64,000 bases of DNA from Tubiluchus corallicola (taxonomy: Eukaryota; Animalia; Priapulida): positions 1-64,000 of the forward strand of contig JAQGDQ010000787.1 of the NCBI GenBank assembly GCA_030141605.1. Reading direction: 5' to 3'. The translations under genes and the position numbers were made by a program. This document shows, piece by piece, positions 604-55,000 of this stretch (within the stretch, counting starts at the first letter, position 1; each line of letters starts with the position of its first letter). Under the pieces are notes generated by a model. That model was given only the letters and a program-made list of their open reading frames with translations, did no database searches and was not told the origin of the DNA.

Positions 604-5056
<4,453 letters not shown>

Positions 5057-7879
5057 TCCCCCTTCAATAAACAGCGAGTTATTGACAGATACCCTTTCTA
5101 CTAATGTAGGCCTATTTATTTTTGTGCACATGGAACAAGGAAGAAAAATTAAAAATAATAATGACAATTGTAAAAGTAAAGTGCGACTGTAACCTTCTTA
5201 TGGATTTTTCTTATTTTGGTAACTTAAACACGTGACCCCAATTAACGGTGGTTGGAAGGAACTGTGGAGCTCATTAAATTTTTAATTAACGAATATAATT
5301 TAAATTTAATACAACTATTTAAAGTTGATAATTTTTAGCACTAGCACTAGCAAATGTGAATAAAACCTATTAAGATTAGTTAACCAATCATAAGGCATGT
5401 ACTACTGGTAGTTGTATAATACTGAAAGTGATATTGGTTTGCATGTACACCATATTACTTGAAATTGCCAATCAATAATTTAAAAAAATTCATTTACTTG
5501 CATCATATTGTAATCTACTCTAACACAGAATAAAACCCTTAGATGTAGAACATGTTCCTGGCGTTCTTGAATTAGACTTGCATCTACTGCACGTGAAAAT
5601 TATACTATTTTTCCAGGTATATTTTTACAGGCTAGCATAAATTCATATTTTCCAATAGTAAAAGCCTGCAAACAGTTTATTTGTCAACATACACGTGTCT
5701 ATTATATATATAATTTGACGTTAGTGCACTTTGAAGGGATTGTACACGCTTATCGGTCCGCAAAACAGCTCAATCATTTAGTTAGATGAGAAATAGGAGT
5801 TGGCCAAGAACTGAACCTTGATGCACAACTGCATGCCACGGCTAATTGCTGTTAAATGAAAATTTGTTGATAGGATATGAATCAGTCGTTTTATACTGAC
5901 ATGTTTGACCCCTAATGTTATGTAGCGTTGGACAGTGTCAAATGTTTATGCCTAATAAAATGCTGTACATTTTTAATTTGTTGTCCTGCAGTAACAGATT
6001 ATTTCAAATAACTTGTGTTCTGCAATTATCAGCACCGTGAAATAAAATTTACAAGGTTTCATTTATGCAGTAAGCGAAATCCCAGTTTATTTCAGCATTC
6101 ATCAATCCAACTTACAATCCAACTACTAATGTCAACAGCCCACTAATGTCAATAATGTGAGTGCACTTCACTTTCCACGTAGTGGCCCAGGCAGTAATCC
6201 ATTGAAAAGAAATCGAAAAACGTTTTTACCAGTAAAATTGTAGTGATGCAGATGTGTTATACGTATTGTACCTATACACTAATTACAATACCTAGTGAAC
6301 ATATATCTGTCTTTAAATAAATGGCATAGCCTCTCTCTGTTTGAGGAAAATTATCTGTGGTTAACGAGCAAATGACATTGGGCTAAAATACCTAGTTGAT
6401 TTTATAAGTATTTTGTCCTCGTCTATTTAATTGAAAGCAGCAAATTCAACAATGTGAAAAAACAACTGGTAGAAAAATCATCATAGATAATTACACGAGC
6501 CCATAGCGATACGTAATGCCAACGTCTGAACAGTAAGGCAACCAATACTTGTTGTACTAATGAAATTGTGTACAGTGATTTAAACGATAGCCATCAGCCA
6601 AATCTAATATCCATTAGCATACAGTAAATCAATAATCTAGTCAATGTTATTATAATTGTGAGCAAGTAAATAAAATCAGTTGACATGACACTATCGGAAG
6701 CCTTGTATGAAAACAGAATAATTCCAGCATACAAATAAAATTTTTTTCTGTGTCCATACATAGCATACATATTTTGCTGTGGGCAGTGAATTTGTGTAAC
6801 TGCATTTTGTATCACCATAGAGGAAGATTGTTTTCCCTTCCTTGTTATTCCTTTCTTTGTGAGATGTGTTATTACATATTCTTTTCTCACAAGAGTAAGC
6901 AATGCTACGCAGTACCAAAAAGCATAAAAAAAGAATTATCTTTGTTAGGCCTACATACGCTTATTATGATGCCCTGTATGGTAATGATTACAATTAACAT
7001 TCTCCGTCTATCATTCCATGGTGGACAGTCAGAAGAAAACTTGGTCGCCGCACGGTAAGTGAACTTAAACAACCCGAGCTTTTCAGTAACTGGATGGGAG
7101 ACTAATGGGGATTTCTCTACTCTCCCCCCACTTACATCGTTTGGGGGAGATTGTATGCAAATCTTGATTTAGCCTCTTGTCATAGAAGACTTGTACAAGA
7201 TGATGAGCAAGATTCGAATCCTGATAGAATCATCTAGGTTCGTGCTTTGTATTGAGTCCAGGACCACCTAACTGCAGTAAGCAAGTGTAAAAAGCAGTTA
7301 TACTCTTCAAAGACTTGCAAAATTTAAAACAAACCAGCTTAAATCATTCAAACTGCAAAAACGCAAAGCAAAGCATTTCTAAATACCAACTCAGCAATGT
7401 TTCCCATTCATTAATCTGGTATTTTAAAAACTTTCGCAACTTTGTTCAGCCAAATGTATGAATAGGATGTGGATATTAATTGCGTTTGTTCCGTATGATT
7501 CACCTGTATGTTGTAAAAGAATGTACTGCAGGTTTATTAATATTAATGTACTGCATATTTAACAGTGGCGTAAACTACAGTTTTAAATTTTTAACTGTTG
7601 AAAGTGTTAATTCTGCAAGATCTGTTACTGTTTATTAGTATTCTTACTACGTGTTCTTAATTCAAGGCGAATTTGTCAATCTTCATACACGCACAATTAT
7701 ATTAATTTTTGTTTAAAAAATCAAATTAAGGAAATTTTATGCTGAAAAGGCGGTTGTATTTGATTGTTTATTTATATAACTTGGTATTAAAATGACATTA
7801 AACGTTTTTGGGAAAGCAAACCAATTTAATGTGCATAATAAATACATTTAAACTGCGTCAGAGCAGACCTTATGTATGT

Positions 7880-7950
7880 ATATATATAAGGTTAAGCTAT
7901 CACAGTTTATATATCACCGTGGCACAGTTTCCACAAAGCAGAAAGTAAGT
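7880..7950 (+). promoter_or_regulatory. Putative TATA box and non-coding first exon of gene B
   Basis: TATATAAG at ~7883-7890 and a GTAAGT donor at 7945; the ATG exon has its own acceptor (ttttttgcag, 8822). Confidence 0.45.
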
Positions 7951-8843
7951 TTTTAAAACAGTTTTTTAAATAATTTAAGTTTCTACTTGTTCAAATGATG
8001 AAACAATTTTTCATAATACTTACTTAAGTTAATAAAGCAAAGTTACTAAACGGAATCATGGATGTTGTGATAAAAGAGTTGTAATAAAAGAGATGTAGTA
8101 GAAATAACGAAATACACTACACCATTATGCGTGTGCCGAACTACTTTATTTACAATGCGGTCTCACGCATTAATACATAACAATGGGTTACGAAATATCC
8201 GTTCGTCAGCAAATAAAATCCTAACTCCTTTAGCAGAACATTTATGATTCTGTTTATTCACTTTGCTTAAATTGCTTTATTAACTTTATGAACTCAATTA
8301 TCATAACACTCACGCTTCCGTCTATAATTTTGTTAAAACATCTGTTTAGAACTGTCCGATTTCTCTTGCTCATGGAACTACTAACTTCGCTTACTGTTTT
8401 GTTTACTGTTTTCTTAAACCAAAAACTTGGGGGGGGGGGGGGGTTGTATTTGTCACGACCTCTCCCATTAGGAATTTGTTGGTATACTTTGAAAAAGCAA
8501 CCGAACATCTGTGTTTCAAAACAGTGAAATAATGCTACACACAGTATCTCTAAATTACACGTAGGAGTTTATTTATTTATTTATTGTGATCATTACGCAT
8601 CTAGCACATCATTTTGTTCAACTTTTTCCAACTTGTTCCTTGTATGTAGGCAGATTCGTTTACTAGTGTTACTAATTTCATCTAAACATTGAGATCTATC
8701 AATGGAGAGGATTTGTGTTTAGTTGTCCACTTTTGAGTGTCCTCTGTAACGTAGTTGTACATGCTTAGGATAGCGTCACGTTTGAAGCTAGCGGGAAATT
8801 CATTTCTAATTATTTTTTGCAGTTATAGAAGAGCAAAGTTACA

Positions 8844-17083
<8,240 letters not shown>

Positions 17084-18742
17084 TCCCCCTTCAATAAATA
17101 GCGAGTTATTGACAGATACCCTTTCTACTAATGTAGGCCTATTTATTTTTGTGCACATAGAACAAGAAAGAAAAATTAAAAATAATAATGACAATTGTAA
17201 AATCAAAGTACAACTGTAATCTTCTTATGGATTTTTCTTATTTTGGTAACTTGAACACGTGACACGAGCTAACGGTGGTTGGAAGGAACTGTGGAGCTCA
17301 TTAAATTTTTAATTAACGAATATAATTTAAATTTAATACCACTATTTAAAGTTAATAATTTTTAGCACTAGCACTAACAAATGTGTATAATACCTATTAA
17401 GATTAGTTAACTAATCATAAGGCATGTACTACTGGTAGTTGTATAATACTGAAAGTGATATTGGTTTACATGTACACCATATTACTTGAAATTGCCAATC
17501 AATAAATTAAAAAAATTCATTTACTTGCATCATATTGTAATCTACTCTAACAAAGAATAAAACCCTTAGATGTAGAACATGTTCCTGGCGTTCTTGAGTT
17601 AGATTTGTATCAACTGCACGTGAAAATTATACTATTTTTCCAGGTATATTTTACAGGTTAGCATAAATTTATATTTTCCAAAAGTAGAAGCCTGCTGACA
17701 GTTTATTTGTCAACATACACCTGTCTATTATATATATAATTTGACGTTAGTGCACTTTGAAGGAATTGTACAGGCTTACCGGTCCGCAAAAGGCAAAACA
17801 GCTGAATCATTTATTTAGATGAGAAATAGGAGTTGGCCAAGAACTGAACCTTGATGCACAACTGCATGCCACGGCTAATTGCAGAAAATAAGCGGAAAAT
17901 TTGTTGCTTAAGTGTCATCAGTGGTATTTTGACAGTGACGTAATACAATGCATAGTTTAACCTACACCAATTTCATATGAAACAAAACAGATTTTCTAAA
18001 TTTGAAATATAATTTTATTATTTTCGAATCACAGCAATCTGCCAACAGGTATAAAATTTTGGGAATAAATTTAATGAGAGATCATTAAGCGTACAATAAA
18101 TCAGTTCATAATCGTTATTTGAAATAAATTGTCTGAGAAACTGGAACTTGCAATAACGTTAATAATGGCTGCACAAGCAGCAGCTTTTTATTTAAAATTT
18201 TATCACACTCATAGGAAGACATTAAAAAATGACAATCATGCTAAATCATAGGCAGGTGTCTAACAAAAACTATCAAGTATACTTTTGTGTAATTTTACCA
18301 AACCACAGTCCTCGTAACTGCAGTCTTCATAAGCAGATGATGTGCACATTAGCTTTTTGCCGTACCGAGCAGTTTAAAACTAGTTTAGTAACATATGCAC
18401 TTTTTAATTATACCAATATAAGCTTGTTACCACAGTATAAATAGTGACACCGAGATTTTAATAAATTTTAATAAGGTTAATGTTAAAGAAAATTGTTGTC
18501 TTTTTAATGTAATGTAATTTAGCATTTTAATAAGTTTATTGTTATTATTACTATTATTGTTATTATCATTATCATTACAATTACTATTACCGATATCATT
18601 ATTATAATAAGATAAAAATATCAAGAACAATGATTCATGTATCAAATCACAGTAGGTTAATTTCAAATCATCAAATCAATTCTTCTATTTAAAATATTCC
18701 ACCAGATATGACAATTATTTTACTAGTTGATCATCAAGTCTT

Positions 18743-20235
18743 CTAACATCGTGCACAATAGCAATCATATCTGCAGTCACAAAATCCAGTAAAGTAACCT
18801 CTGCGTCTACATTCAGAGTGGCAGCGTGGGGTGTGTCCAACTAAATCAAATAAAAAAATCAAGTTATCATTTAATAATGTTAATAATCGTTTTTTTCCAA
18901 ACACAGTTACCAAAATTCAATTCAACACGTTAAACTTTGGTAACGTTTCAAATCTGAATGAACACAATATGTGTAACGTCCTGACAACATTTGTAACTTT
19001 GTTAGAAACTTTATAGAACATTTAACATAAATCTTTCTTGCTTATTAATCTGTTTATTCACAAAGACTGCTGCCATGATAAGTCTAGAGGATGTAACACC
19101 TCGTGGTTTTGCCCGCTAGAAAACAGTGAGGGGGAACTTTATTGAGCACAAACATTAAAATATAAACCATAGATAAGAACACGTCACAATATGCATGGAT
19201 AAGCATCAATCAACTTGTTAATGTTGTCAAAACAAATCGGTTTTATGATTTTATATTCATAAAAAGTATAATTGTTAACTTCTTGAAGCTTTAAAAGGCT
19301 TTACACTGAAAGAAGTCTAATTTAATACCATCTATTTTGTGAATATCTAGTTTACTTACCTCTACAATAATAGCTGCTTCGCTCCTGGGGAGGGTCGACA
19401 TTCTCAAATGCAAATTGTTTTTCGGTCACATCTAAAAATAGAAACAACGCATGTAGAAATTGTAAAGCTTTGATCGATTGGAAGATGAACATTATCAAGT
19501 ACCTTTTGTTACTAGTTAGGCAAATTAGTTGGGTCTTTTAAATTAACTGCAAGAAATAAGAAACTACTGCAGGCTGTCTTGGCTCAAAGTGTAAGGCCTA
19601 ATGTTTCACATAGATCTCTCTGAATCATACGAAGTCTCGATTGATTTTGAAAAGCTTCAATAAATTTTAGTTTTAGTAAACCGCCTGCAGAACTTGGTGA
19701 GAGCGTGGTGAATTCTAACAATCAGTAACATTTAAGTTGAGCTAACTAAAATAAAAATGATATTTTCTGCTTTTCGTCTTTGATTGTTGGAACTTATAAA
19801 GGAAACAATCAGTTACGAAAAGCAGGAACAATCATTTTTATTTTAGTGAGCTCAACTTAACTGTTACTGATTGTTAGAATTCACCACGCTCTCACCAAAT
19901 TCTGCAGGCGGTTTACTAAAACTAAAATTTAGTGCAGTTTTTGATAATCAGAAGAACACAGGCTTATAGGTAACGTTTTAGTTTAGTTGTAAATAATAAC
20001 AAACACACCAGGGTTCTGTGAGAACGTTTTGGTTAAAATAAAATCACTCCATTGGCATATTAAGAGAGTACTTTATCTGGGATGTTAGGCCTTACGTGAT
20101 GAGCTGAGAGTCTGCATTTTTGAAACTTTAAAAATGAATTTTTTTGAACTCACCCACATCGTTCACATCTTCAGCATGGATAGCAGCAACTACAGCCATG
20201 ACAACAATCAGTGCAATGATTATGCCGGTCTTCAT
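18743..20235 (-). CDS. Gene C: 83-aa prepro-defensin-like peptide (CS-alpha-beta type, 8 Cys)
   Basis: Exons 20235-20154, 19431-19360, 18840-18743, with canonical phase-1 GT-AG introns. Protein MKTGIIIALIVVMAVVAAIHA-EDVNDVDVTEKQFAFENVDPPQER-SSYYCRVGHTPRCHSECRRRGYFTGFCDCRYDCYCARC*: signal peptide, acidic propiece, and a cationic domain with C...CxxxC...GxC...CxC. Confidence 0.9.
19661..19931. repeat. Long inverted repeat (~100-bp arms), MITE-like, in an intron of gene C
   Basis: 19661-19761 is a near-perfect reverse complement of 19832-19931. Confidence 0.85.
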
Positions 20236-20503
20236 TGTAAATCCAAATGTTGCAATAGTTCTGCAAAATATGACGAAATTTTCATTCATTTATTACACAG
20301 CCTGGTAGCCACATTTAAATTTTTACAGAATTCTGTAAATAACGGAACATAATCGTGAAAATCTGACTTCTAGTGATACAAACTACAACAATGACTGCAG
20401 CAGCCACAACTTCAGTGACAGTGACAATGACTATGACAACATTATAACAACAACAATTATAAGTACCGATGTAAATAGTTATGAAAAAACTAAATTGTTT
20501 TAC

Positions 20504-20587
20504 CTTATGCGTCCAAGTGATCTTTGTAAGCTCGTGTCTTGTTCCTAGAAACTTCTACACAACTCTGACTTTAGAAGGCTTTTTATA
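20504..20587 (-). promoter_or_regulatory. TATA box and non-coding exon 1 of gene C
   Basis: Minus-strand TATAAAAA at 20587-20580 and AAG|GTAAAA donor at 20504/20503; acceptor ttttgcag at 20261, 25 nt upstream of the ATG; AATAAA at ~18540, downstream of the stop. Confidence 0.6.
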
Positions 20588-22665: not shown

Positions 22666-23069
22666 AAGTTCGAAAGTTAGGGGGAGCAAGCACATAGAAA
22701 GGCACAACATTTTAACACATTTTGACTATAAATTTCAATTTTGTGTTAAAAATCAAAACAAGAGCAAGATTTAGTTTTAAAATACGTAATTGCCACTACT
22801 AAAGGCCTGCTACTAGACAAAAAATAACTTCCCAGAAAAAATGAGAGAAAAATTTATTCCCAGAAAACAATTTTTTCTACAAAATTCGTTTCACAGAAAA
22901 ACATCTCCCAGAAACATTTTTTAACGGACAAATCACGGTTAAATATTTAATTGATAAATCTGTTAATTTAGCATTCGACTTCTCTTTTTCTGTTTGCTTT
23001 TCCCTCTGTATCTCCCTCCCTTCCTAGCCTCTCTCCCTTTTCCCTTTTCACTTATTATCTGATACAGGT

Positions 23070-24225
23070 TAGGCTTGTGAAGATGAGATCACACTTGCTT
23101 GAGAAATTAAGTGAGCCTTGCGAGGGTGAGATCATTACACAAGAGAAAGAGTGAGACTTGTGAGCATGGGATTATTACACAGGAAAGTAAGTGAGGTTTG
23201 TGAGGGTGAGATCATTACACAAGAGAAAGAGTGAGACTTGTCAGCATGGGATTATTACACAAGAGAAAGAGTGAGACTTGTGAGCATGGGATTATTACAC
23301 AGGAAAGTAAGTGAGGCTTGCGAGGGTGAGATCATTACACAAGAGAAAGAGTGAGACTTGTGAGCATGGGATTATTACACAAGAGAAAGAGTGAGACTTG
23401 TGAGCATGGGATTATTAGACAAGAGAAAGAGTGAGACTTGTGAGCATGGTATTATTGCACAAGAGAAAGAGTGAGACTTGTGAGCATGGGATTATTACAC
23501 AAGAGAAAGAGTGAGACTTGTGAGCATGGGATTATTACACAAGAGAAAGAGTGAGACTTGTGAGCATGGGATTATTACACAGGAAAGTAAGTGAGGCTTG
23601 CGAGGGTGAGATCATTACACAAGAGAAAGAGTGAGACTTGTGAGCATGGGATTATTACACAAGAGAAAGAGTGAGACTTGTGAGCATGGGATTATTACAC
23701 AGGAAATTAAGTGAGCCTTGCGAGGGTGAGATCATTACACAAGAGAAAGAGTGAGACTTGTGAGCATGGGATTATTACACAAGAGAAAGAGTGAGACTTG
23801 TGAGCATGGGATTATTACACAAGAGAAAGAGTGAGACTTGTGAGCATAGGAGTATTACACAAGAGAAAGAGTGAGACTTGTGAGCATGGGATTATTACAC
23901 AAGAGAAAGAGTGAGACTTGTGAGCATGGGATTATTACACAGGAAAGTAAGTGAGGCTTGTGAAGGTGAAATCATTACACAAGAAACCAAGTGAGGTTTG
24001 TGTGGGTCAAATTATTATGCAAGAAAGTAAGTGAGACCCGTGTGGGTGAGACCATTACATGAGAAAGAGAGTGAGAGTTGTGAGGGTGAGATCATAATAC
24101 GAGAAAGTGAGTGAGCCTTGTGAGGGTGAGATTATTAGACAAGAAAGTAAGTGAGGCTTGTGAGGGTGAGATTATTACACAAGAATCTAAGTGAAGCTTG
24201 TAAGAGTGAGAAAATTATATGAGAA
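23070..24225. repeat. 40-bp minisatellite, ~28 copies, two variants
   Basis: aagagaaagagtgagacttgtgagcatgggattattacac interspersed with aggaaagtaagtgaggcttgcgagggtgagatcattacac. Confidence 0.95.
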
Positions 24226-24699
24226 ACGTGAGATGTAGACGACGGGCTGTCAGCCTCTCAGCATCTTCATGTGTGTGATTCACTTATAAAGAGGCTTTGA
24301 GTTAGCGCACCTGCGCGCTCCTTACCTGTTTAAATCAGTTCCCACCTGAGAACTCAATCAGTCATTACCTGCATGTCGTACCGAGGCATCTACACTTCTC
24401 CTTCGCCTCCTCTTCATCAGTCCAATTCTATTGATTCTGGATTAGAGGCAGACGAATCAGCAGGTGCCAAAGCTGTTCATCCCGTTGCCATAACAACCAG
24501 CATAGGTAAGTATTTTCGAGTTTTTGTAGGCATACGATACCATTGTTGCAACAGTACAGAATATATACAAATACTAATATTTTAATTATTAATAATTAAT
24601 TATAATTATAATATTGAAATGTTCTGGAACTAATTATTTAGTGTGACATCTATTATAAAATCTAAAAACAGACAACCTATTATTATGTTTTGGGTGAAT

Positions 24700-26899: not shown

Positions 26900-28090
26900 A
26901 AGTGATGTTAATAATGATGATGATGATGATGCTAATGCTAATAGCGATGATTATGACGACGACTATGATGATGCTAATAGCAATGATTATGATGACGACT
27001 ATGATGATAATGATGCCGATGGCGACATATGATGTTAATAATGATGATGATGATGACGATGATGCTAATAGCAATGATTATGAAGACGACTATAATGATA
27101 ATGATGCTGATGGCGACATATGATGTTAATAATAATGATGATGATGATGCTAATAGCAATGATTATGACGACGACTATGATAATAATGATGCCGATGGCG
27201 ACATATGATGTTAATAATGAGGATGATGATGCTAATAGCAATGATTATGACGACGACTATAATAATAATGAAGCAGATGGCGACATATGATGTTAATAAT
27301 GATGATGATGATGACGATGATGCTAATAGCAATGATTATGACGACGACTATAATGATAATGATGCCGATGGCGACATATGATGTTAATAATGATGATGAT
27401 GATGACGATGATGCTAATAGCGATGATTATGACGACGACTATGATGATAATGATGCTGATGGCGACATATGATGTTAATAATGATGATGATGATGATGAT
27501 GCTAGTAGCGATGATTATGACGACGACTATGATGATAATGATGCCGATGATGCTAATAGCAATGATTATGACGACGACTATAATGATAATGAAGCTGATG
27601 GCGACATATGATGTTAATAATGATGATGATGATGACGATGATGCTAATAGCAATGATTATGACGACGACTATAATGATAATGATGCCGATGGCGACATAT
27701 GATGTTAATAATGATGATGATGATGATGATGACGATGATGCTAATAGCAATGATTATGACGACGACTATGATAATAATGATGCCGATGGCGACATATGAT
27801 GTTAATAATGATGATGATGATGACGATGATGCTAATAGCAATGATTATGACGACGACTATAATGATAATGATGCCGATGGCGACATATGATGTTAATAAT
27901 GATGATGATGATGACGATGATGCTAATAGCAATGATTATGACGACGACTATAATGATAATGATGCCGATGGCGACATATGATGTTAATAATGATGATGAT
28001 GATGACGATGCTAATAGCGATGATTATGACGACGACTATGATGATAATGATGCTGATGGCGACATATGATGTTAATGATGAAGATGACGG
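26900..28090. repeat. ~91-bp satellite built from GAT/GAC/AAT triplets
   Basis: Unit ...gatgctaatagcaatgattatgacgacgactataatgataatgatgccgatggcgacatatgatgttaataat..., about 12 copies; the reading frame shifts at each unit. Confidence 0.9.
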
Positions 28091-29594: not shown

Positions 29595-30367
29595 GTTAAT
29601 TATTTAAAAAATGTAAAACAATGAGTAATTTTACATGTTGGTACGTAACTCTGCTGCAGAAGTAATGAGTAACAATGCATAATTTATTACATCAATGTAT
29701 TGCTGAAACAATGGATAAGCATAACAATGGACAATGCTCTCAATGTTAATTAATTATCTAAAAAATGCAAAACAATGAGTAATTTTACATTGTTGGTACG
29801 TAACTCTGCTGCGGAAGTAATGAGTAACAATGCACAATTTATTACATCAATGCATGGCTGAAACAATGGATAAGCATAACAATGGACAATGCTCTCAATG
29901 TTAATTAATTATTTAAAAAATGTAAAACAATGAGTAATTTTACATGTTGGTACGTAACTCTGCTGCAGAAGTAATGAGTAACAATGCACAATTTGTTACA
30001 TCAATGCATGGCTGAAACAATGGATAAGCATAACAATGGACAATGCTCTCAATGTTAATTAATTATCTAAAAAATGTAAAACAATGAGTAATTTTACATT
30101 GTTGGTACGTAACTCTGCTGCGGAAGTAATGAGAATAACAATGCACAATTTATTACATCAATGTATTGCTGAAACAATGGAGCAGCATAACAATGGACAA
30201 TGCTCTCAATGTTAATTAATTATTTAAAAAATGTAAAACAATGAGTAATTTTACATGTTGGTACGTAACTTTGCTGCAGAAGTAATGAGTAACAATGCAC
30301 AATTTATTACATCAATGTATTGCTGAAACAATGGAGCAGCATAACAATGGACAGTGCTCTCAATGTT
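29595..30367. repeat. ~154-bp tandem repeat, 5 copies
   Basis: Unit contains aaaatgtaaaacaatgagtaattttacatgttggtacgtaactctgctgc. Confidence 0.92.
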
Positions 30368-30857: not shown

Positions 30858-32156
30858 TGTAATGACCCAGAATAAATCATTGAACCGTACTCTAAGATAA
30901 ACATTAGGCTTTATTTTCATATTTTGACACCAGCTTCCCTTTACTTATGTTCACTAAATGAAATTGTTTTTAGATTGTTATGATCAACTAGGTAATACTA
31001 TTTGTTAGTTTAGGGAAGGTTATTCCCCCCCCCCCTGGGTTGGGTTAAACGTGTAACTGTACGTTTGTGCATTTAATCGCATTGAAGCCAAACGCATGGA
31101 TTTCTGGACGTTCGTGACACAGATTTCACGGACAGGATATGCAACTTGAGTTTGGTTGGTGAAACTGCGTTTTTACGTTTTACCTGATTGTCCATTAGCT
31201 GACGTTTGAAAAGCTAATGATCTATTTGTGGTGGTGGAAGATGTCCACTCTTTGGTTTACATGGCTTTGCTGATCTTACCATGCCGGGAAGATGTCGTTT
31301 CGGATCATGTGAGAGCACCGTCGTGCAGTTGGAAAGGTGCCCAGCTCAATACTCCATCGCATGGGACGGAGAAGTCGTCACTGCCCGGGTAGGAACTTTA
31401 TGCCAATAAACCGGAAGGCAAAGGTACCTGTTTACTTACGTTATCGTTAATTGGCGCCAGAGGGAGAACTTGTTTTTGATGTGAATTTCCGAACGCATGT
31501 GTGCCTACAACTACGTTCACACGTCACCCTTTGATAGACTTACGTTGAAACATTTAGCTACGCTTCTCTCAGACTTTTTGCGTCATCACTGTGGGAGTTG
31601 TGAACCCGTTAGATGAAGTTTAAACCACACTTTAGTCGTCCTAAAGGACTATGGCCACAATCTACACGTGTCTGGAGAATATACTATGCTAGCGTACGCA
31701 TTTTGGGGTGGCTGGTAGAGTAAGTAGGAACCATTTAAATAGTTAGGAACACTGTATGATTTTTGTATGTTTTGTCATTGCATTTAATTCGTGCCATGCT
31801 GTTTAGTAGCGTTTTCAGACTTACTTTTGCTTATTACTAATTTCCATTGTTTACAAAAAGCTCAACTATACAACTGTTTTTGTTTGTGTCATTAAACTTA
31901 ATATTTTGTCATTTATTCGTCTGGTTACAGTTGGTTTTTGGGGTATAGATGGAAAGCCTGTTTTCAATCAATCCCACCACAAAAGAATCCATGCTATTTA
32001 GGTAGAGCCCCGTAGCTGCCTACGCTCAGCTATTGTCTGTTTCTTTAGTGGGCAGTTGGTTAGTGCCCCTAGCTCGGCCAAGGAACTGATCGAACTTAGC
32101 AGCGACTACCATTAATTGGCCCCTATGGTCTGCCCCTGTATGCACGGGCCATTACA
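30858..32156 (+). repeat. 5' LTR (~1.3 kb)
   Basis: TG...CA with 11-bp imperfect inverted termini; directly repeated at 34869-35962. Confidence 0.9.
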
Positions 32157-32158
32157 GA

Positions 32159-32177
32159 TGGTGGCAGCGGTGGGATT
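32159..32177 (+). promoter_or_regulatory. Primer binding site, tRNA-Leu type
   Basis: TGGTGGCAGCGGTGGGATT, 2 nt after the LTR end, complementary to the tRNA-Leu 3' end AATCCCACCGCTGCCACCA. Confidence 0.85.
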
Positions 32178-32583
32178 GATTTAATCAGGTTTTCTACTCT
32201 GTGCGTTTATTTCAAAAATTTAAGTTTAATACAAAGACCTTGGGAAGAAATTTAGCACTCGCACAAGAAAGTAGGTGCGAGAAACTAGGTCACTTTACAC
32301 TTATATTTCAGTTCTATAACCTTGCGCGGAACGTATACCAGGTTTAGTTGTTATAACTTTGTGCAGTATTACGGTAATACGAAATTTTTGCTGCGCTTTA
32401 ACGTACTTTGTTCTCGTGGCTTCCATAGCAAAATCTTGTTGCAGTTATAGAAGCCAAGTTTTGTGCAGAATCCGCTGTCGCGAATTACACAATTTAAACA
32501 ATTCGCACAGTTGACATTGCTTGGCAAAAGTCGAATAATAAATTTATTCACACTCACAGTATTATAATACTACATTAATAAAC

Positions 32584-34911
32584 ATGGAAGACGAAGACAA
32601 TATTTATACAAGAGAACAGTTGGACACTTTGCCAATGTCCAAGCTTCGAGAAATAGCTAGATCATTGGATATGATCTCTTTGTCCAATAGGCGGGTAGTT
32701 CTTATTGACACAATATTAGAAATTCAGGCCCAGCGCCCAGTACCATCTGAATCCCAACAAGGAATGGTTTCGCCCGTCACTTCACTACTGTCAGCAGTAC
32801 AACAGACAGTCGAGAAAGCACAAGCTACGAAGTTAGCGCCGCCCTCTCCCGACTTGAGTCCGCCGCAGCTTACCTTGCACCAAACACCAGCAAAACAGCT
32901 TAGCGACCCTAGCACACAAATAAGTACTAGTAATGAGACAGGCATGTATGATTTAACCGGGTTGCCCCCAGATGATAAAATTAAATTAATTTTACAACTG
33001 GAGGAGTCCAGAGCGAGAGAGAGAGAGTTAGCGAGAGACAGAGAATGGCAGGTGCGTGAATTAGAGATAAAGGAACGTCAACGGGAGCGTGAAGAGAGGA
33101 GGATGGAGAGAGAGTGGGAAGCAATGCAGGAAAGCAAAAGACATGACAGAGAGTTGCAAAGAGCACGTCTTTCATTAAATACATCAAACGCAAATGCAAA
33201 CTCTACATCTACTGAATTCACACAGCATATTAAACTCAAAGTGCGACCTTTTAAGGAAGGTCAAGGTGAGTCGATCCTGGAGTACTTGACTTATTATGAG
33301 CGTTGTTGCCAAGTGAATGATATACCAAGGTCACAGTGGTGTTGTTCTCTTGCCCCTCATCTCTCGGGTAAGGCTAGTTATGCCTTCCAACTTATTGAAG
33401 GGGAGGATATTCGTTCTTATATCAAAGTCAAGGAAGCCATTCTTGCAGCTTATATGGTGACTCCTGAGAGTTACCGCATAGCGTTTAGGGACCTTTCTAA
33501 ACGTAAAGATGAGACGTGTACGCAGACAGTGGTACGTCTCAGGCAGAGCCTACGGGACTGGGCAGATGCTATGTCGGTCACCAGTAAAGATCAGGCCCTA
33601 GATTTAATAGCCTATGAGCATTTCATGACAATAATCCCTGCAGAGGTCGCTTTGTGGCTGAAGAAAAATAGCATCTACAAACTTGACGAAGCTGCTCAAA
33701 AAGCTGACGCTTATATTTCAGCTCAGAATCCCAGAGCAACCTCTAGTAAATTCTCTCCATCACCAGCAAATCGTAAACCTGATGTAAAACCTGCAACACA
33801 CAAGGGAGGAACTGCACCAGCCAGAGTGCAATGTTACCATTGCGGCCAGCAGGGCCATTATTCTTCCTCTTGCCCAAGAAAGAAGGCCTCTCCCACTGAA
33901 AGGCCTAGATTAGCACCTAGCGTGAGAGACAAACCATCGTACAAACAACTTTTGGTCCCTTGTGCTCCAGATATGGCGACTTTAGTCACTGCTGGAGCAG
34001 GAACCGAAGAGTGTGTGTCTGGTCAACCATGTTTTCGAGCCGTCTTGAATGGAAAAGACGTCACCGGGTTGCGAGACACTGGAGCCTCAAAGTCTGTTGT
34101 CCACCCAGACCATGTCCGCCCTGAACAATACGTGAAAGGTTTGTCCAACCAACTGTCTTGCATACATAACTGTGACAAATCTTGTCCCGTTGCTATTGTT
34201 GAAATAGAATCGCCTTACGCTACAGGCTATCTGACAGTCACCGTCGCAGTTGATTGTCCAGTTCCACTATTATTGGGGAATGACTTTGAAACTGAAATCT
34301 CTCCATTTTTGTCAAAGAAAGACAAATCTAGTGGGACAAACAAGAAACAACCCAAGCAACCTGGGAAAGGTCTCACACTCAGACACCAACCATTAACTTC
34401 GGGTGAAGGTTGGGAGACACCCAAGCTGTACTCTCAGGTAGTTCAGTCTACTGAGCAAAAGAACGTGTCTGCCCCTCAACCCAGTTGGGAACCTCAGCCG
34501 GTAGCTGATGCAGAGGCTGCCAAATCTGTTGCATTCCCAATAGGAACTAGAGCTAAGGCAAGGGCTCTAAGTGAACAAGAAAAACATGATGCAGAAATAC
34601 AGCACCAAGCTAGTTCTGATACACCCCTACCTGTCTTAAATGAGAAACAGGCTAGGAAACAACAGAACCTTGCAGAATTGGTGCAAAGAGAACACTTAAT
34701 AAGTGAACAGAAAAATGATGTTACTTTGCGCAACTTACTTGACCATGTGCAAGCAGAGGCTGAATGCAAAGCCCAAAAGGTTGGCTACTTCTTAAAGCAA
34801 GGAGTACTTCACACAGTGCGCCGTAATGCAAGAGGAGGCCACACTGACCTTCTAGTAGTACCCTCAGTCTGTACGTTTGTGCATTTAATCGGATTGAAGC
34901 CAAACGCATAG
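32584..34911 (+). CDS. gag-pro: Gag (SCAN-like capsid C-terminal domain, CCHC knuckle)-aspartic protease polyprotein, truncated at the start of an integrase-like region
   Basis: 775-aa uninterrupted ORF with a coiled coil, PESYRIAFR...DLIAYEHFMTIIP...DEAAQKADAY (SCAN-like), CYHCGQQGHYSSSC, LRDTGA, and EQKND..L...YFLKQGVL...LLVVP. The last ~14 codons come from the LTR. Confidence 0.9.
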   Translation: MEDEDNIYTREQLDTLPMSKLREIARSLDMISLSNRRVVLIDTILEIQAQRPVPSESQQGMVSPVTSLLSAVQQTVEKAQATKLAPPSPDLSPPQLTLHQTPAKQLSDPSTQISTSNETGMYDLTGLPPDDKIKLILQLEESRARERELARDREWQVRELEIKERQREREERRMEREWEAMQESKRHDRELQRARLSLNTSNANANSTSTEFTQHIKLKVRPFKEGQGESILEYLTYYERCCQVNDIPRSQWCCSLAPHLSGKASYAFQLIEGEDIRSYIKVKEAILAAYMVTPESYRIAFRDLSKRKDETCTQTVVRLRQSLRDWADAMSVTSKDQALDLIAYEHFMTIIPAEVALWLKKNSIYKLDEAAQKADAYISAQNPRATSSKFSPSPANRKPDVKPATHKGGTAPARVQCYHCGQQGHYSSSCPRKKASPTERPRLAPSVRDKPSYKQLLVPCAPDMATLVTAGAGTEECVSGQPCFRAVLNGKDVTGLRDTGASKSVVHPDHVRPEQYVKGLSNQLSCIHNCDKSCPVAIVEIESPYATGYLTVTVAVDCPVPLLLGNDFETEISPFLSKKDKSSGTNKKQPKQPGKGLTLRHQPLTSGEGWETPKLYSQVVQSTEQKNVSAPQPSWEPQPVADAEAAKSVAFPIGTRAKARALSEQEKHDAEIQHQASSDTPLPVLNEKQARKQQNLAELVQREHLISEQKNDVTLRNLLDHVQAEAECKAQKVGYFLKQGVLHTVRRNARGGHTDLLVVPSVCTFVHLIGLKPNA

Positions 34912-35962
34912 ATTTCTGTACGTTCATGACACAGATTTCACGGACAGGATATGCAACTTGAGTTTGGTTGGTGAAACTGCGTTTTTACGTTTTACCTGAT
35001 TGTCTATTAGCTGACGTTTGAAAGCTAATGATCTATTTGTGGTGGTGGAAGATGTCCACTCATTGGTTTACATGGCTTTGCTGATCTTACCATGCTGGGA
35101 AGATGTCGTCTCGGATCATGTGAGAGCACCGTCGTGCAGTTGGAAAGGTGCCCAGCTCGATAGTCCATCGCATGGGACGGAGAAGTCGTCACTGCCCGGG
35201 TAGGAACTTTATGCCAATAAACCGGGAAGCAAAGGTACCTGTTTACTTACGTTATCGTTAATTGGCGCAGAGGGAGAACTTGTTTTGATGCGAATTTCCG
35301 AGCGCATGTATGCCTAGAGCTCCGTTCACACGTCACCCTTTTGTTAGACTTACGTTGAAACATTTAGCTACGTTTCTCTCAGACTTTTGCGTCATCACTG
35401 TGGGAGTCGTGAACCCGTTACATGAAGTCAGAACCATACTTCAGTCGTTCTAAAGGACTCTGACCACAAACTACACTTGTCTGGTGAAGATATTATGCTA
35501 GCGTACGCATTTTGGGGTGGCTGGTAGAGTAAGTAGGAACCCTTTAAATAGTTAGGAAAACTGTATGATTTTTGTATGTTTTGTCATTGCATTTATTTCA
35601 TGCCATGCTGTTTAGTAGCGTTTTCAGATTAGCTTTTGCTTATTACTAATTTCCATTGTTCACAAAAAGCTCAATTATACAACTGTTTTTGTTTGTGTCA
35701 TTAAACTTAATATTATGTCATTTATTCGACTGGTTACAGTTTGGCTTTTAGGGTATAGATGGAAAGCCTGTTTTTGATCAATCCCACCACAAAAGAATCC
35801 ATGCTATTTAGGTAGAGCCCCCGTAGAGTCTGCCTACGCTCAGCTATTGTCTGTTTCTTTAGTGGGCAGTCGGTTAGTGCCCCTAGCTCGGCCAAGGAAC
35901 TGATCGAACTTAGCAGCGACTACCATTAATTGGCCCCTATGGTCTGCCCCTGTATGCACGGG
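34869..35962 (+). repeat. 3' LTR, missing the first ~200 bp and last ~8 bp
   Basis: Collinear with 31057-32148, with scattered substitutions and indels. Confidence 0.9.
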
Positions 35963-41959: not shown

Positions 41960-42600
41960 AAACGTATTATTTATTTTATTTATGTATTTTATTCACACCC
42001 AATAGTAAAATGCAGTCTACAATAAAAACAGTATAATATAAAACACTTTGGCAAAAACATACAAATAAAATATTTACAAGAGTGCGGTAAAGAAACAAAT
42101 AGATTAACTGCTTATATGTGTCTATTGTGTACAAAGAATTTATGCAAGTTAACTTTATATAAGCGGCTTTTAAATAAGTTAATGTTTTGTGCAGTTATGA
42201 GGGGTGCACCATCAACATATGCAGCCAGTGAGTTCCAAATCGGTACAACTCGATTTGAGAGAAATTGACCAAATGATACTTTAGCTGTTCGACACATGAA
42301 AAGCTTTAGAGAGTGATTTTGCCTTGTTCTACTTGGGTAAAAAATTTGTCAAAGTCAACATCAACTTCTCTATGAATAATTTGGTAGCATAAAGTTAAGT
42401 CTTTATGAATGCGTTTCTCCTCTAAAGACTTTAGATGTAGAATATCAAGACGCTTAGGATATAGCATATACATTAAATTACATCTATAAAACAGGCGTCG
42501 AGTAAAGTATCGCTGTACACTTTCTATACGGTCAACATTACCTAATAAAGCAGGATTCCAGACTGGCGAGCAATACTCTGCAATAAGTCTTGTGTATTTT
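41960..42600 (-). mobile_element. CR1-like LINE 3' fragment
   Basis: EYCSPVWNP...IESVQRYFTRR...RLDILHLKSLEEKR..DL; FLSNRVVPIWNSL; AATAAA-rich tail. Confidence 0.8.
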
Positions 42601-43322
42601 TTCATATTTTTGCGATGTCCTAATAACAATCTCATATTCATTCTCATCCACGTCATTTCACTAACCTAATTCTACTAATTCCCATCTGCTTCACTCTCCA
42701 ATATCGTTCCATCACTTTTTATCACCCCAACACCGGCACCATTAATTGCATTACAGACAAACAAGTAATGCTTCTGACCATAATGCAAGCAACAATTTAT
42801 ATAGATATCACGAATTACACCTCTTGGCTTAACCTGGACAATGACCTATGCTGGCAAAACTATATTCAGCATCTCCGTCATCGGCACAAGTTTTTGGTCT
42901 TCTTGGAAATTATATTGGCTTCAATTATCCATTCATATAAAAACATCGCTGAGAAACCATGTCAGTGATCAGTGTAGTCTTCGAAGCGAAACTAGATGAA
43001 CATTTGTTGCGATTCACGGACAATAACAATTTCTTGCCGATGTACGGCTTCTGCATGACTAGGGGCGTATTAACCAATAAGCTAACTAGGCTGCAGCCTA
43101 GGGCGCCGAAGTTTGAGGGGCGTCACATTTTAGAAAGAATCTGATTCTCCCCGGAAAATGTGTATACTTTTATATTTATGTAAAGCGCGCATTTTATAAC
43201 ACACCACAGGCAGTTACTGAGCAAAGCTTCTATATAAAGCCATATAACGAACAGGGGCGAAGTATTACACACAAGAAGCAGTTGCGCGGCGTGCTTGTAT
43301 ATAACCGCTATGCAAATATATG

Positions 43323-49098: not shown

Positions 49099-52000
49099 AT
49101 GAAGCTGCAGGTAGCGGGATTACTCCTGAGCGTGCTGTTCACAGTTGGTAAGTTTATAGTTATCGATTTATGTCAAACATTTTGCGTAAGAGAAAACGAA
49201 TCTCATATCGAGTGTTGAGAAGAGATTGATTGACACGAGCTGTCAGATTAACAACGTATTTGCATATAAATCGATGAACTTTATTAAGTTGTCATACTTG
49301 AAGGAATTATTTTTGTTCACTGTCTGACGAAATGTCGAATTTCTGCAAAATTGTGTTTTCTAGATTCTATCAGATTGAATTTCTGAAGTGGCGTTTATGT
49401 ATAGCATGCGGTTGCGGGCGCGTTTTCTAATACAGAACGGTTTGCGGGAAAAAATCAATAGGAAATAGTTGCAGAAAAAGAATAACGCATACGCAGGCTG
49501 CATAGACGGGTGCATTGAAAACAATATAAACCGATTTTGTTTGCTCCGTACCCCCAAAACTCATCCGCATCTATGCAAATGCCACTGAACGCCGCATTCT
49601 AACTAGCGAGTTTTCTCTCTGACAGCTAACTTGCAAATTGAACTGCTTTGTGAGTTACTGTCGGTAAGTTATTGCAAACTCTCCCACAACTGCTGCGAGT
49701 TGATTTACATTTACTGCCTAGTGTGAACGCCACAGCGAGTTACTCTCGACACTTTTCTCAGTGAATAGAGAATTGAGTGTCAGCTCGCGCTTACTGTTGG
49801 AGAGTAACTCACAGCAAGTTTTGCTCTGTAGCGAGAATTGAGTGTCAGCTCCTGCTTACTGTCGGAGAGTAACTTGCAACAGGTTATTCTCTCTAATCTG
49901 AACACGCGAGTTACTGGCTGTCAAAATAAAATAACAATCCAATCTAATCTTACTTTTCGAGTTAATTTGACAAAAAGTCTTGTTAGCTTGAACACGCCGC
50001 AACTAAAGTTATGATTCTACGGGTTTACAGTAGTAATGGACTTTATGTATGATTTTATAACACTGATTTTAATAAATAGAACTTCGCTGCTGTATATTTA
50101 ACTTTCTGTTGTGAGATTAAAGAGGCGTCGGCTTGTAGCATTGACGCTTTCTTGCGCGGCATGGCTGCACTGATTATTTGCAATACGTAAAGTTTTTTTT
50201 AACATGTGTTATTCATCAAAATGATTATTATTTTTTGGCATGATGTAAGCTACACAGTGTAAGGACCGGCTGTAGAACGTATTTCTTAAGCAAGCACGTA
50301 TCAAGACATTACGACGCCCCTTGACTGATTATGGTTAATTTCATTTGCATACCTATTTTATCCAAGTAGGCTGCACAACTGCTTGTTTTGTACTACCTTT
50401 TATGAAATAATTGTACTGTTTTGTCATGTGCCCTTTATATAGAAAGTGTACACAGTAATTGCTTGTGGTATTTTACAAAATACACACTTTATTTGAATAT
50501 GAAAGGCATTTTCCGAGGAGAATAAGAGTTTTTTAACACTAGCCCCTAAAATCTGGCTCCCAATCACAATTTGGCACCGTATACTGTGGCGTACTTATCC
50601 TGTTGGTAAATATCACCTGTTGCTAAGATCATAGCATCTGATAAGTTAATATAGGTTCCCAGCTCAAGCAAGATTACTTGAAGCAAGGTTAGGCGAAGGG
50701 CGTTGTTAGAAAATTTGCGTCTCGCTTGGTCTCCTTCGCGAGCGATTATGCTAATGACAAAGGGACCAATATAGCAATAACAATACAGCAGTACCAACAG
50801 TGCAATCACAATAACTGTAGCAGCAGCAGTAGTAGAGCAGTAACAATGGCTGTAGACATAGTAACAGCATTAGTGCGATGACAACAGCTGTAGCAACAGC
50901 AGCAGCAGTCGTGCAATAACAATAGCAGTAGCATCATTAGTGCAATAACAATAGCAGTAGTGTTATCAGTGCAATAACAATAGCAATAGCTTTATTAGCG
51001 CAATAATATTAGCAATAGCATCATTAGTGCAATAACAATAGCAGTAGCATCACTAGTGCAATGACACTAATAATAATAGTAGTAGTAGCAGCAGCAGCTG
51101 CAGTGCAATAACAATAGCAGTAGCATCATTACTGCTATAACAGTAGCAGTAGCATCATTACTGCTATAACAGTAGCAGTAGCATCATTACTGCAATAACA
51201 ATAGCAGCAGCAGCAGGAGCAGCACAGCAGTGGTAGTGTAATAACAATAGCAGTAGTGGTAAAAGTAGCAACAGCAGCAGCAGCAGCAGCACAGTAACAA
51301 TAGCAGTAGTAGCAGCAGCAGCTACAGTGCAATAATAATAGCAGCAGCAGTATAGTAACCATAGCAGCAGCATTATCAACAGCAGCAGCAGCATTACCAC
51401 AACCAATGAAACCACTAACCATTAAAATGTTGAATATTTCACCACTTTTATCTTACGTAAAAAATGTTTGAATGCTCCTGTTTCATTATTCTTATTCGTC
51501 AGTTTTTATAATGTAATTTTTTGCACTCTATTTATCAACGATAAATTGTTATTTTAGCTGTGGCAAAGAAGTGCTATAACTGTCAATATACCAACTCGCC
51601 AGCTGGCGACAAGGTCTCTGAGCTTCTTACTACTATGTTTGGTAAGTAAATTTATTTATTTTATTACACAAATTCATACCGCCTGTTAATTGTTTTAAAA
51701 CATATTTTTATTTATTATTTTCACATATAATGTGGCCTTTGGTTAACAGCAAAGCTGATGTAAAGACCTCAGGTAAAATAGAAAATAAATTTTAACCCTT
51801 TCAGTCCCAAATCGTTTTTTTAATAAGAAAAATTTTTTGGCTTGGTACTTTTGTTCAGTATCTCCATCTTGTTTACACATAATAATTATTTTTTTCTACT
51901 TTCATTCTACCTACCTACATACACAACATTCTTTGTCATGTGCAAAAAGTCCGACTTTTTTAAAAACGCAACAAAAGCAAAAAATGTGCTTCATTTTGCA

Positions 52001-55000
52001 ACTGCTGATAATTTTTCAAAGTATTTAACACATTTAGTATGCACGCTATGCTGATCTGTACAAAGTCGTCTCTAAAGTACTGTACCTTGCGCAGTTTTTT
52101 GTACTATGTAGATTTTCTAGTTTGCCATTTTATCACCATTTTTGAGTCTATTGTTATTGGCTTAAATCAAAATAACTATTAACAGATCAAAAAACTGTCA
52201 GTTTTAAAATTTTATTAATTTTAAAGGCAGAAAATATTCTCGTATCCCATGGGATACAACGTGTATGAAAGGGTTAAAAGATTCTGCTAGATGCAATCCA
52301 TAATAAAATGTGGCTGCATGATCAAGAGATACAAGTCTTACTTTCCTTACTTTTAATCTACCAGTATTCTTGGTGAACTTCTGAACTACTTCAAAAAGTG
52401 CAATACTGTGGTCATAGTTTAACAAAGGACTGCCGTTTAAAAGAAGAAAAATTAAAGACTCGGTCTCTAAATTGAGCACATTGATTGATATTATGTTATT
52501 TTGAAATATGGTGGACAAGCTGTGCACAAGTTGCTCTATACTTACATTATAATAAATGGAAATATATTATGTCAGAAGAGAATGTCCTTAGGACTGCAAA
52601 ATATGCTTATAAGATTTTTAGAATGAGGCAAAGCAAGATATATATTTAATACATGACTTGTCCATTCAGGTATATGTTAAAATTCCATATTATATATTTT
52701 CTTTTATTTGATATTCTATGTAAATGAACTGCACAGTTATTATGTGATAAATTTTCATGAAATTGACTTGTAAGCCCAAGTGGGCTGGAAACAGCTTTAA
52801 TAACATTTTACAGTATTAATTAACACATGAATTATTACATTGTTATTATCATATGTTTATGTCAATAAAGATATTCAATCATTCAATCAAAATAAAGAGG
52901 TCCCCAGAGTGGAGCCCGTTAATTACACTTAGTATTGTATGGTGCATAACATGATGATGTTCGTCCTTCGAATCAAAGACGACCATAGTAACAGGGATAA
53001 AAGGTCAGTTTGGGGGGTTGTCATTCCTTTGATGAGCTCGAAGGTGACTGACTAGGCCAATTCTGGCCTGGAAACTTCTTTGGCATTTGGCACAGGTGAG
53101 GCTGGGTATTTGGACCTGTTGTTGGGCAGTGTCACATGCCTTGCATCTCCTGAGCTTCTCCTCTGCCTCCTCAATTCTTTTCGCCTCTGCTGTCTTAGCC
53201 CCTGTGGTGATGGCACTCCATCATGCTGAGCGATCTTGTGCAAGGGTTTCCATTGAGCAGATATCCATGCTGAGCTCCTTGAGTGAGGCCTTCTGGCTGT
53301 CTTTGAAGCATTTCTTTGGTCGTCCAACCTTTCTCTTTCCAGACTCAAGTTCTCCATAGAGCATCTTCTTTGGTATGCGGTTGTCTGGCATGCGAATCAC
53401 ATGTCCTGCCCCCCAAACTTGTGTTTTGAGGAGGAGTGTATGGATGCTGGGGAGGTCAGCTCTTTTAAGTACCTCTGTGTCTGGCACCTTGTCCTGCCAC
53501 TTGATGTACAAGATTTTCCTCAGACAGCCCATGTGAGAGTGGTTAAGCTGTTTTACGTGTCTCCTATATAATGTCCAGGATTCAGAGGAGAGTGGTGATG
53601 ACGACAGCTCTATACACCTTCAATTTTGTGGGGGTTCTAATGCCTCTCCTGTCCCATACGTTGGAGCGAAGTCTTCCAAATGAAGCGCTAGCCTTGGCAA
53701 TTCTGTTGTTGATTTCTGTACCGATGTTGGCAGCTGTGGTAAGGGTGGTCCCTAGGTATGTGAAGTTGTCAACAGAGATAAGTTCTTGACCATTCACTAA
53801 AATCTTTGGCGTCTAACTGACATCGCTGTTATAATTCTCATCATTATCGGCATTATCACCATTATTATTGTCAACAGCGTTGCAATAATCTGTCATTGTC
53901 ATCACTGTTGTCATAGTCATCATCATCATCATGATTACTATATTTGTGGTCATCACCATGATCATAAGCATCATCATTATTCTTGTTACCATCATCACTA
54001 TCACCGTCATAATCATCATTTTGTAGTAGTTGTTTGCATAAATTAAACAGAAGTATGTTTTTTATGATAAATGTTACAAGCTGCTGTTTTCCACTGCAGA
54101 GGCTCTAGAAGCGGACCTTGATATAAACTCATTGCCAAAAAGTGATATGTGTGCAGACAGCGATGACGGTGAAGATGTTATGGGACTCAAGGGCAACAGA
54201 TATCGAACAGACTGCAACGGGGCCTGTCACAAAATGAAGATCCTCAGAGGTTAGTAGATCATTACTGGACTTGATAGATGTGTTCTGCGAAGGCCTTTAT
54301 TAAGGCGCGTTCAAGCTAGAGAATATCTGTTTTCTTTTTGACAGCAGACTTGCAAATGTGAACTGAATACCTTGGTGAGTTTCTCTCGACAGTTCTTGCA
54401 GTGACCAGAGAAGTGAATGTCAGCCTCGCAGCGAGCTAACTTGGTGTCATAACCCACTAGTCTGAACGTGCCTTTGATAGTAATTTGTACACACACGAGG
54501 ATTAGAAAAAAGTGATACATTTTTCGCATAAGTTTGTTCACATATTAGCTGAAAAAATACTCACATACCTTATGATATACCTTATCCTATATCTCATGTT
54601 GCCAACCTTGCGTTGCCTCACCTAATATTTCACATGTGACACCTAACATTACTTTACATGACCTCACTTCACTTCTCTTTATCTAACACTTCAGCAACTC
54701 CTCTCGCCTCACCACGCCTCACTTCACATCACCTTTCTTGTTCTCACCATACCTCACTTCACATCACCTTGCTTGTTCTCACCATGCCTCACTTCACATC
54801 ACCTTGCTTGTTCTCACCATGCTTCACTTCACATCACCTTGCTTGTTCTCACCATGCCTCACTTCACATCACCTTGCTTGTTCTCACCACGCCTCACTTC
54901 ACATCACCTTGCTTGTTCTCACCATGCCTCACTTCACATCACCTTGCTTGTTCTCACCGTACCTCACTTCACATCACCTTGCTTGTTCTCACCATGCCTC

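Follow-up and report, generated by a model that had tools for sequence, protein, structure and literature searches.

Gene structure and precursor

A probably spliced gene on the minus strand, with three coding exons of 82, 72 and 98 nt (20235-20154, 19431-19360 and 18840-18743), was identified in the window, i.e., the whole 64-kb stretch of DNA analysed here, and its predicted product is a small secreted peptide rich in Cys. The features of the locus are as follows:

20581-20587 (-), candidate TATA box (TATAAAA), seen in the sequence and weak alone
20504-20556 (-), exon 1, predicted to be non-coding, with an approximate start some 30 nt past the TATA box and a GT donor at 20503
20154-20260 (-), exon 2: rest of the 5'UTR, ATG at 20235, predicted signal peptide and start of the acidic propiece
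20235-20173 (-), predicted signal peptide, aa 1-21, from hydropathy
19642-19950 (no strand assigned), MITE-like foldback element in intron 2, with 147-nt arms that are 90% complementary; outside the CDS
19360-19431 (-), exon 3: remaining propiece to PQER, then mature residues 1-6 including Cys5
19381-19379 (-), Arg45, last residue of the PQER motif, from the translation
18743-18840 (-), coding part of exon 4: mature residues 7-38 with seven Cys; predicted helix and beta-hairpin
18794-18796 (-), Tyr22 (TAC), at the site of the partner of the C-terminal Cys in ABF/myticin-type peptides
18773-18775 (-), Cys29, the extra Cys two residues past the GxC Cys; predicted hairpin tip
18746-18748 (-), Cys38, the C-terminal Cys without its usual partner
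18535-18540 (-), first AATAAA past the stop, candidate polyA signal; a common hexamer in the window

The spliced CDS of 252 nt translates into 83 aa without internal stops and ends with TAG at 18745-18743. The two introns that interrupt the CDS (722 and 519 nt) lie in phase 1 and are of the GT-AG type, with the donors GTGAGT and GTAAGT and pyrimidine-rich AG acceptors, and the intron between the UTR exon and exon 2 is predicted at 243 nt. The reading frame is intact, and, judged by these signals, the gene is likely to be spliced. The TATA box, UTR exon and polyA signal that an earlier note on this DNA had listed are present, although each is weak evidence singly because such elements are common in the AT-rich DNA of the window (TATAAA occurs 45-49 times per strand, AATAAA about once per 620 nt, and the AATAAA at 18540 is the end of an AAT-type repeat). 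All three coding exons are shorter than 100 nt, a type of gene that is overlooked by ORF-based annotation.

A generic CS-alpha-beta core pattern, drawn up after the sequence had been seen, matched once in the six frames of the window and in none of 200 dinucleotide shuffles, and a chance ORF was rejected on this count. The exact codon pattern also occurred once in the window and in none of 100 shuffles (a circular test, as the pattern was taken from the gene itself). An alternative acceptor that would add a Cys was likewise rejected, because the in-frame intron stretch 5' of exon 4 contains no Cys.

The precursor comprises a hydrophobic leader of 21 aa, a propiece with a net charge of -6 that ends in PQER (its length of 24 aa assumes cleavage of the leader behind residue 21, a position taken from hydropathy alone, with a maximum of 3.6 in 11-residue Kyte-Doolittle windows) and a mature peptide of 38 aa. 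The mature peptide contains 7 Arg, 3 acidic residues, 2 His, 7 aromatic residues (Tyr/Phe) and no Lys (net charge +4, pI 8.7, 4582 Da reduced). Its Cys are located at positions 5, 13, 17, 27, 29, 33, 35 and 38 (spacing 7-3-9-1-3-1-2), and codon 22 is TAC. The same layout of signal, acidic propiece and cationic mature part is found in insect defensins. PQER fits the XXXR-with-Glu type of cleavage motif, which was defined for spider venom precursors (PMC6468893). The exons and their in-phase joins as given in the earlier note were reproduced exactly from the window sequence, and the translation agrees with its signal peptide, acidic 24-aa propiece ending in R, 38-mer with 7 Arg and 3 acidic residues, and Cys array (C-x7-C-x3-C-x9-C-x1-C-x3-C-x1-C-x2-C).

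Predicted fold and sequence relatives

Fold and sequence searches were conducted with the 32 aa encoded by exon 4, the contiguous part of the mature peptide, from which Cys5 (exon 3) is absent. Among solved structures, the best sequence matches were ARD1 and heliomicin (E 6e-4 to 3e-3; 13 matches at E<=10); a scorpion peptide and Dg3b, a venom peptide of robber flies, ranked next. Single-sequence AlphaFold predicted a helix (5-13) and two strands (18-21 and 27-30, exon-4 numbering) with a pLDDT of 88.7 (70.6-88.7 in the five models). All 46 matches listed by Foldseek for this model are defensins, thionins or scorpion-type cystine peptides by title, the best being lucifensin (probability 1.00, rmsd 0.6 over 26 columns, E 0.11), and none of the matches of the 32-residue query reached E<=0.001. 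The VIA wide search returned 40 chains with Z>=2 and none with Z>=5 (best: NsD7, Z 4.0, rmsd 2.4, 32 aligned; Dg3b, Z 3.9, rmsd 1.8, 31 aligned), and the first 28 of these chains we take, judging by their titles, to be defensin-like or scorpion-type. Weak absolute scores in both fold searches are expected at a length of 32 residues. In the Atlas, the nearest clusters were scorpion short toxins at 0.83-0.84, which is under the lead threshold of 0.9 and serves as a lead only, and Pfam assigned no family to the 32-aa exon-4 fragment.

The Cys that characterize CS-alpha-beta peptides, i.e., C3 and C4 (CxxxC), C8 and C9 (CxC), C2 and C6 in the reference numbering (PMC5116183), are found here as Cys13/Cys17, Cys33/Cys35, Cys5 and Cys27; the gamma-core GxC reads Gly25-Phe-Cys27, and the helix and hairpin are predicted for 32 of the 38 residues. 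The mature peptide is thus predicted to adopt the CS-alpha-beta defensin fold, without a close relative found. The CS-alpha-beta defensin signature that the earlier note had recognized is borne out by the core Cys pattern, the GxC and the predicted helix and hairpin, and the structure prediction and fold search that it had suggested yielded this fold and defensin-type matches.

No relative was detected by a word search with exon 4 among proteins of 71-2000 aa (with a 40-aa query that included 8 intron-encoded residues), nor by phmmer with exon 4 against 1.84 billion representatives at E<=0.001; both searches are weak, given a query of 32 aa and mostly microbial data. Scans of metagenome and viral contigs with degenerate Cys codons revealed no open frame with exactly seven Cys among the matches listed (at least 267, in at least 241 loci), of which the top-scoring ones were low-complexity repeats. 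The gene is single copy within the 64-kb window, with no paralogues there. One same-species run (X1), searched at 88% and 80% likeness, had no contigs on the gene and none on the neighboring CUB exon either, and is uninformative.

The cysteine array compared with known arrays

The array was compared by eye with Tarr's ten-Cys scheme of 2016, used as the reference, and with the 533 rows of its supplementary file 1 (PMC5116183). On this reference C2, C3, C4, C6, C7, C8, C9 and C10 are present and C1 and C5 are absent. The spacing 7-3-9-1-3-1-2 was found in none of the 533 rows (PMC5116183, supplementary file 1), and it is undescribed in the literature as far as searches with terms, which cannot match spacing patterns, reach. 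The six-Cys core (7-3-9-5-1) is ordinary and identical to that of drosomycin, the Ruditapes philippinarum defensin AEK78067 and Hypsibius defensin 8 (PMC5116183, supplementary file 1); the only odd members of the array are Cys29 at the hairpin tip and Cys38 at the C-terminus. The usual partner of C10 is C1 in drosomycin and plants and C5 in MGD, myticins and ABFs, and in macins C7 is bonded to C1 (PMC5116183); in the peptide, both C7 and C10 lack these partners.

Heliomicin/ARD1 (1I2U, 1P0A) and lucifensin (2LLD) have the core CxxxC-x9-(GxC)-x5-CxC in common with the peptide, and heliomicin also the helix-end motif; compared to the six-Cys invertebrate defensins, the peptide adds Cys29 and Cys38, and an intron divides its mature part after the first Cys. 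When Cys29 is ignored, the spacing from the first to the last Cys (7-3-9-5-1-2) is that of drosomycin (1MYN, also a fold match) from C2 to C10, which gives the C-terminal Cys a second possible history, namely as a Cys that lost its N-terminal wrapper partner. In contrast to drosomycin and the plant defensins, the peptide lacks the N-terminal C1 for the wrapper bond (the precursor contains no Cys before mature Cys5) and carries the extra hairpin Cys.

The CxCxxC ending is shared with MGD-1, Cg-Def, myticins, ABFs and maurotoxin-type peptides, the distance of nine residues from the helix Cys to the GxC Cys with ABFs, myticins and Cg-Def (4-4), and a gene of four exons, the first of them UTR only, with the myticins (PMC7356231). 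The eight-Cys mollusc/nematode group differs in that its hairpin loop comprises 7-8 residues (5 in the peptide) and its acidic piece is C-terminal, whereas that of the peptide is N-terminal and the mature part spans two exons; in the place of C5 the peptide has Tyr, and there is no Cys between positions 17 and 27. The spacing from the helix Cys to the GxC Cys is 4-4 in ABFs, myticins and oyster defensins and 6-3 in MGD-1 (PMC5116183), and the corresponding partner sites are occupied by Tyr22 and Phe23, respectively. The earlier note's placement of Tyr at the partner site accordingly holds for the 4-4 peptides and not for MGD-1.

Mytilins K, L and N share the C1-x7-C2 loop with the peptide, and mytilin K also has an extra Cys near the hairpin, with two Cys near the C5 site, a Cys that mytilins shift between strands (PMC7168163). 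Mytilins keep C4 (four residues past the helix pair), the C4-C8 bond and a C-terminal anionic extension (PMC7168163), whereas the stop of the peptide directly follows Cys38 and its array differs. Extra exposed Cys occur in 13 of 15 Perna mytilins, for which the authors proposed dimers (PMC7168163), so odd extra Cys with proposed dimers have a described precedent. A deuterostome host, which the earlier note would have found more notable, is not supported, and it would be less new than implied, as three starfish macins are listed in Tarr's table (PMC5116183). Macins have a C1-C7 bond and a 14-residue loop; the peptide has a C7-like Cys, lacks C1 and differs in its spacings.

The nearest precedents of the array are the mytilins, Bj-xtrIT and a 12-Cys velvet-worm row in the table, which has the C6-x-C7 step of the peptide (PMC5116183, supplementary file 1). 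The signature KCxN of potassium-channel toxins (PMC5004176), found in the scorpion alpha-KTx, is absent from the mature peptide, which contains no Lys and reads F-C-D-C at that place. AmBRI-44a and the paralithocins are other four-disulfide invertebrate peptides (PMC11767717, PMC12466427, PMC13208793); AmBRI-44a is derived from a BRICHOS protein, and the 83-aa precursor is too short for BRICHOS. The core six Cys with an extra Cys just past GxC and a terminal Cys, and neither C1 nor C5, were found in only one other row, that of the excitatory scorpion toxin Bj-xtrIT ('10-3-10-C3-1-19'). The extra Cys of this long-chain toxin is adjacent (CC) and its tail comprises 19 residues, compared to 2 in the peptide. 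In Bj-xtrIT the extra Cys and the C-terminal Cys pair with each other. The interpretation in the earlier note, possibly an undescribed subfamily, is supported only in part: the array is absent from Tarr's table, but as no relative was found, the gene counts as a single gene and the idea of a subfamily is weakened.

Geometry of Cys29 and Cys38 and possible connectivities

In the model, Cys29 lies in the inter-strand loop and Cys38 two residues beyond the end of strand 2. Whether the two could pair was calculated on idealised hairpins with an assumed type I turn plus bulge, without helix and side chains, in which the tail was sampled; this covers the standard register, a rewired fold via Cys5 being outside its reach. 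The 60 hairpins of the first run yielded 106,841 clash-free tails, none of which brought CB29 and CB38 within 4.6 A (closest 8.0 A). In a control run (64,700 tails, 40 hairpins) Cys38 reached position 22 in 689 tails (22 of the 40 hairpins) and position 23 in 976 (29 of the 40), the partner sites of ABFs/myticins and of MGD, and reached neither Cys29 (closest 8.9 A) nor Cys27 (closest 5.2 A) in any tail. As Cys38 reaches neither Cys in these models, an intrachain Cys29-Cys38 bond as a simple new fourth disulfide in the standard register is unlikely, and interchain bonds or free thiols appear more likely. The earlier note had left the choice between a different fourth disulfide and an interchain bond; the former is weakened by the geometry and the latter is now the more likely of the two.

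We hold with moderate confidence that the gene encodes a secreted prepro-peptide of the CS-alpha-beta antimicrobial type, with three core disulfides and two extra Cys that bond between molecules. By analogy with the family, the peptide would be secreted, with the signal peptide cut after residue 21, and would be stored as a precursor in which the acidic propiece (-6) masks the mature part (+4), to be released by a protease that cleaves after PQER; the core disulfides would be Cys5-27, Cys13-33 and Cys17-35 (C2-C6, C3-C8 and C4-C9). Bacteria or fungi might then be killed through binding of surface lipid or lipid II by the Arg- and Tyr/Phe-rich surface. On geometrical grounds, the hairpin tip with Cys29 and the far end of strand 2 with Cys38 would not meet within a monomer, and the two Cys would most likely close a covalent dimer, either head-to-tail (29-38' twice) or through 29-29' and 38-38'. 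An antimicrobial role is likely from the family likeness, and the target is not readable from the Cys array, because heliomicin is antifungal (PMC5116183), oyster defensins bind lipid II (PMC3390580), and Dg3b, among the fold matches, is a venom neurotoxin; that the target does not follow from the array is also Tarr's view (PMC5116183). The Perna mytilins are a precedent for the dimer, which in that paper was proposed only (PMC7168163). Against the dimer, eight is an even number of Cys that suits a fully paired monomer more simply, and joint conservation of Cys29 and Cys38 is without support, as no relative was found.

An arrangement in which all eight Cys are paired within one chain, in a pattern that would be new to the superfamily, is in our opinion rather unlikely; e.g., Cys5 could wrap to Cys38 with Cys27 and Cys29 paired or metal-bound, or a shifted register could join Cys29 and Cys38. 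Apart from the even Cys number, it could draw on the mobile C5 of the mytilins and the two Cys of mytilin K near this site (PMC7168163), on the extra and C-terminal Cys of Bj-xtrIT, and on the N-terminal wiring, which is outside the scope of a model that lacks Cys5. However, Gly25 is at the standard-register GxC position, the model superimposes on lucifensin with an rmsd of 0.6, the tail of two residues is far shorter than that of Bj-xtrIT, and Cys38 in the standard register reaches neither Cys29 nor Cys27 in the idealised hairpins. Alternatively, the peptide may be a private or transitional variant of an ABF/myticin- or drosomycin-type defensin that lost the partner Cys and gained another by drift (or through an allele or consensus error), with spare thiols that are free or capped and have no special role. 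We consider this doubtful: two separate changes that keep the Cys count at eight would be needed, and neither the frame nor the splice sites nor any core residue is damaged, even though Tyr22 at the ABF/myticin partner site is one base from a Cys codon, the gene is single copy in the window without a relative found, and Cys are known to have been lost or gained in pseudomyticins (PMC7356231), drosomycins of D. takahashii (PMC4999892), mytilins (PMC7168163) and ASABF-6Cys.

A venom or defensive neurotoxin on a defensin scaffold, instead of an antimicrobial peptide, is very unlikely, since the best sequence matches are antifungal insect defensins, the KCxN signature is absent (PMC5004176), with F-C-D-C in its place and no Lys, and no toxin gene cluster was found within 64 kb; features that would suit a toxin are the acidic propiece, whose terminal XXXR-with-Glu motif is also known from spider venom precursors (PMC6468893), the presence of Dg3b and scorpion peptides among the sequence and fold matches, and the scorpion short toxins as nearest Atlas clusters, a lead only. 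For the interchain-bonded defensin, a tentative extension, which we think improbable, is that the gene is the founding member of a lineage-specific defensin family, in which the intrachain fourth bond has given way to two bonds between chains, one at either end of the hairpin, and obligate covalent dimers or short chains are the active antimicrobial form. Few scaffolds of innate immunity are better known, so that the gene by itself is ordinary, and its wiring is the possible point of interest. Covalent dimers of mussel CS-alpha-beta peptides have been proposed and, in the mytilin paper, not demonstrated (PMC7168163), and a 38-mer whose hairpin is predicted to carry one free Cys at either end would be a direct test case for disulfide-linked dimer defensins or a new four-bond topology.

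Genomic surroundings

The opposite strand carries, immediately downstream of the defensin gene, a cluster of secreted/receptor genes made up of tandemly repeated CUB and CUB-Ig exons (1003-17080, +), which are 72-93% alike in pairs; no relative of the CUB-Ig exon was found in the database search. Examples of these exons are:

1003-1581 (+), CUB/CUB-Ig exon
2717-3220 (+), CUB/CUB-Ig exon
12249-12896 (+), CUB/CUB-Ig exon
14305-14970 (+), CUB/CUB-Ig exon
16847-17080 (+), CUB/CUB-Ig exon

NF-kB-like sites number 36 in the window, vs 41 expected, and there are none between 10458 and 25665. A Quiver/Ly6-like gene with four exons is located at 49099-55736 (+) and has a close Logan homologue, P0004 (92% identical), whose nearest Atlas clusters are mostly from arthropods or nematodes. 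These clusters do not delimit the range of the family and are a weak hint at a protostome; the 5S-derived copy listed below looks protostome-like as well. With its CUB-Ig repeats, Quiver-like gene, SCAN-bearing Gypsy and 5S-derived copy, the window is animal DNA, likely that of an invertebrate. The match to its third exon (54066-54248) is only 68% identical, lacks one codon and has no obvious in-frame acceptor where expected; this exon may be divergent or broken.

Several repetitive elements were also identified in the window. A diverged copy of 5S rRNA (10092-10210, +) scores 91 bits and has no T-run after it; it may represent the head of a SINE derived from 5S. Two minus-strand fragments (42309-42665 and 53224-53619), without a Pfam match, resemble what we take to be the C-termini of LINE reverse transcriptases. 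An LTR element at 31057-35962 (+), with LTRs of 1.1 kb that are 94% alike, contains a 789-aa frame with gag, SCAN, zinc knuckle and protease, i.e., a SCAN-bearing Gypsy, with no reverse transcriptase seen inside. Minisatellite arrays are located at 22990-24233, 26903-28089, 29596-30367 and 54640-55138, with units of about 40, 91, 154 and 40 nt, respectively.
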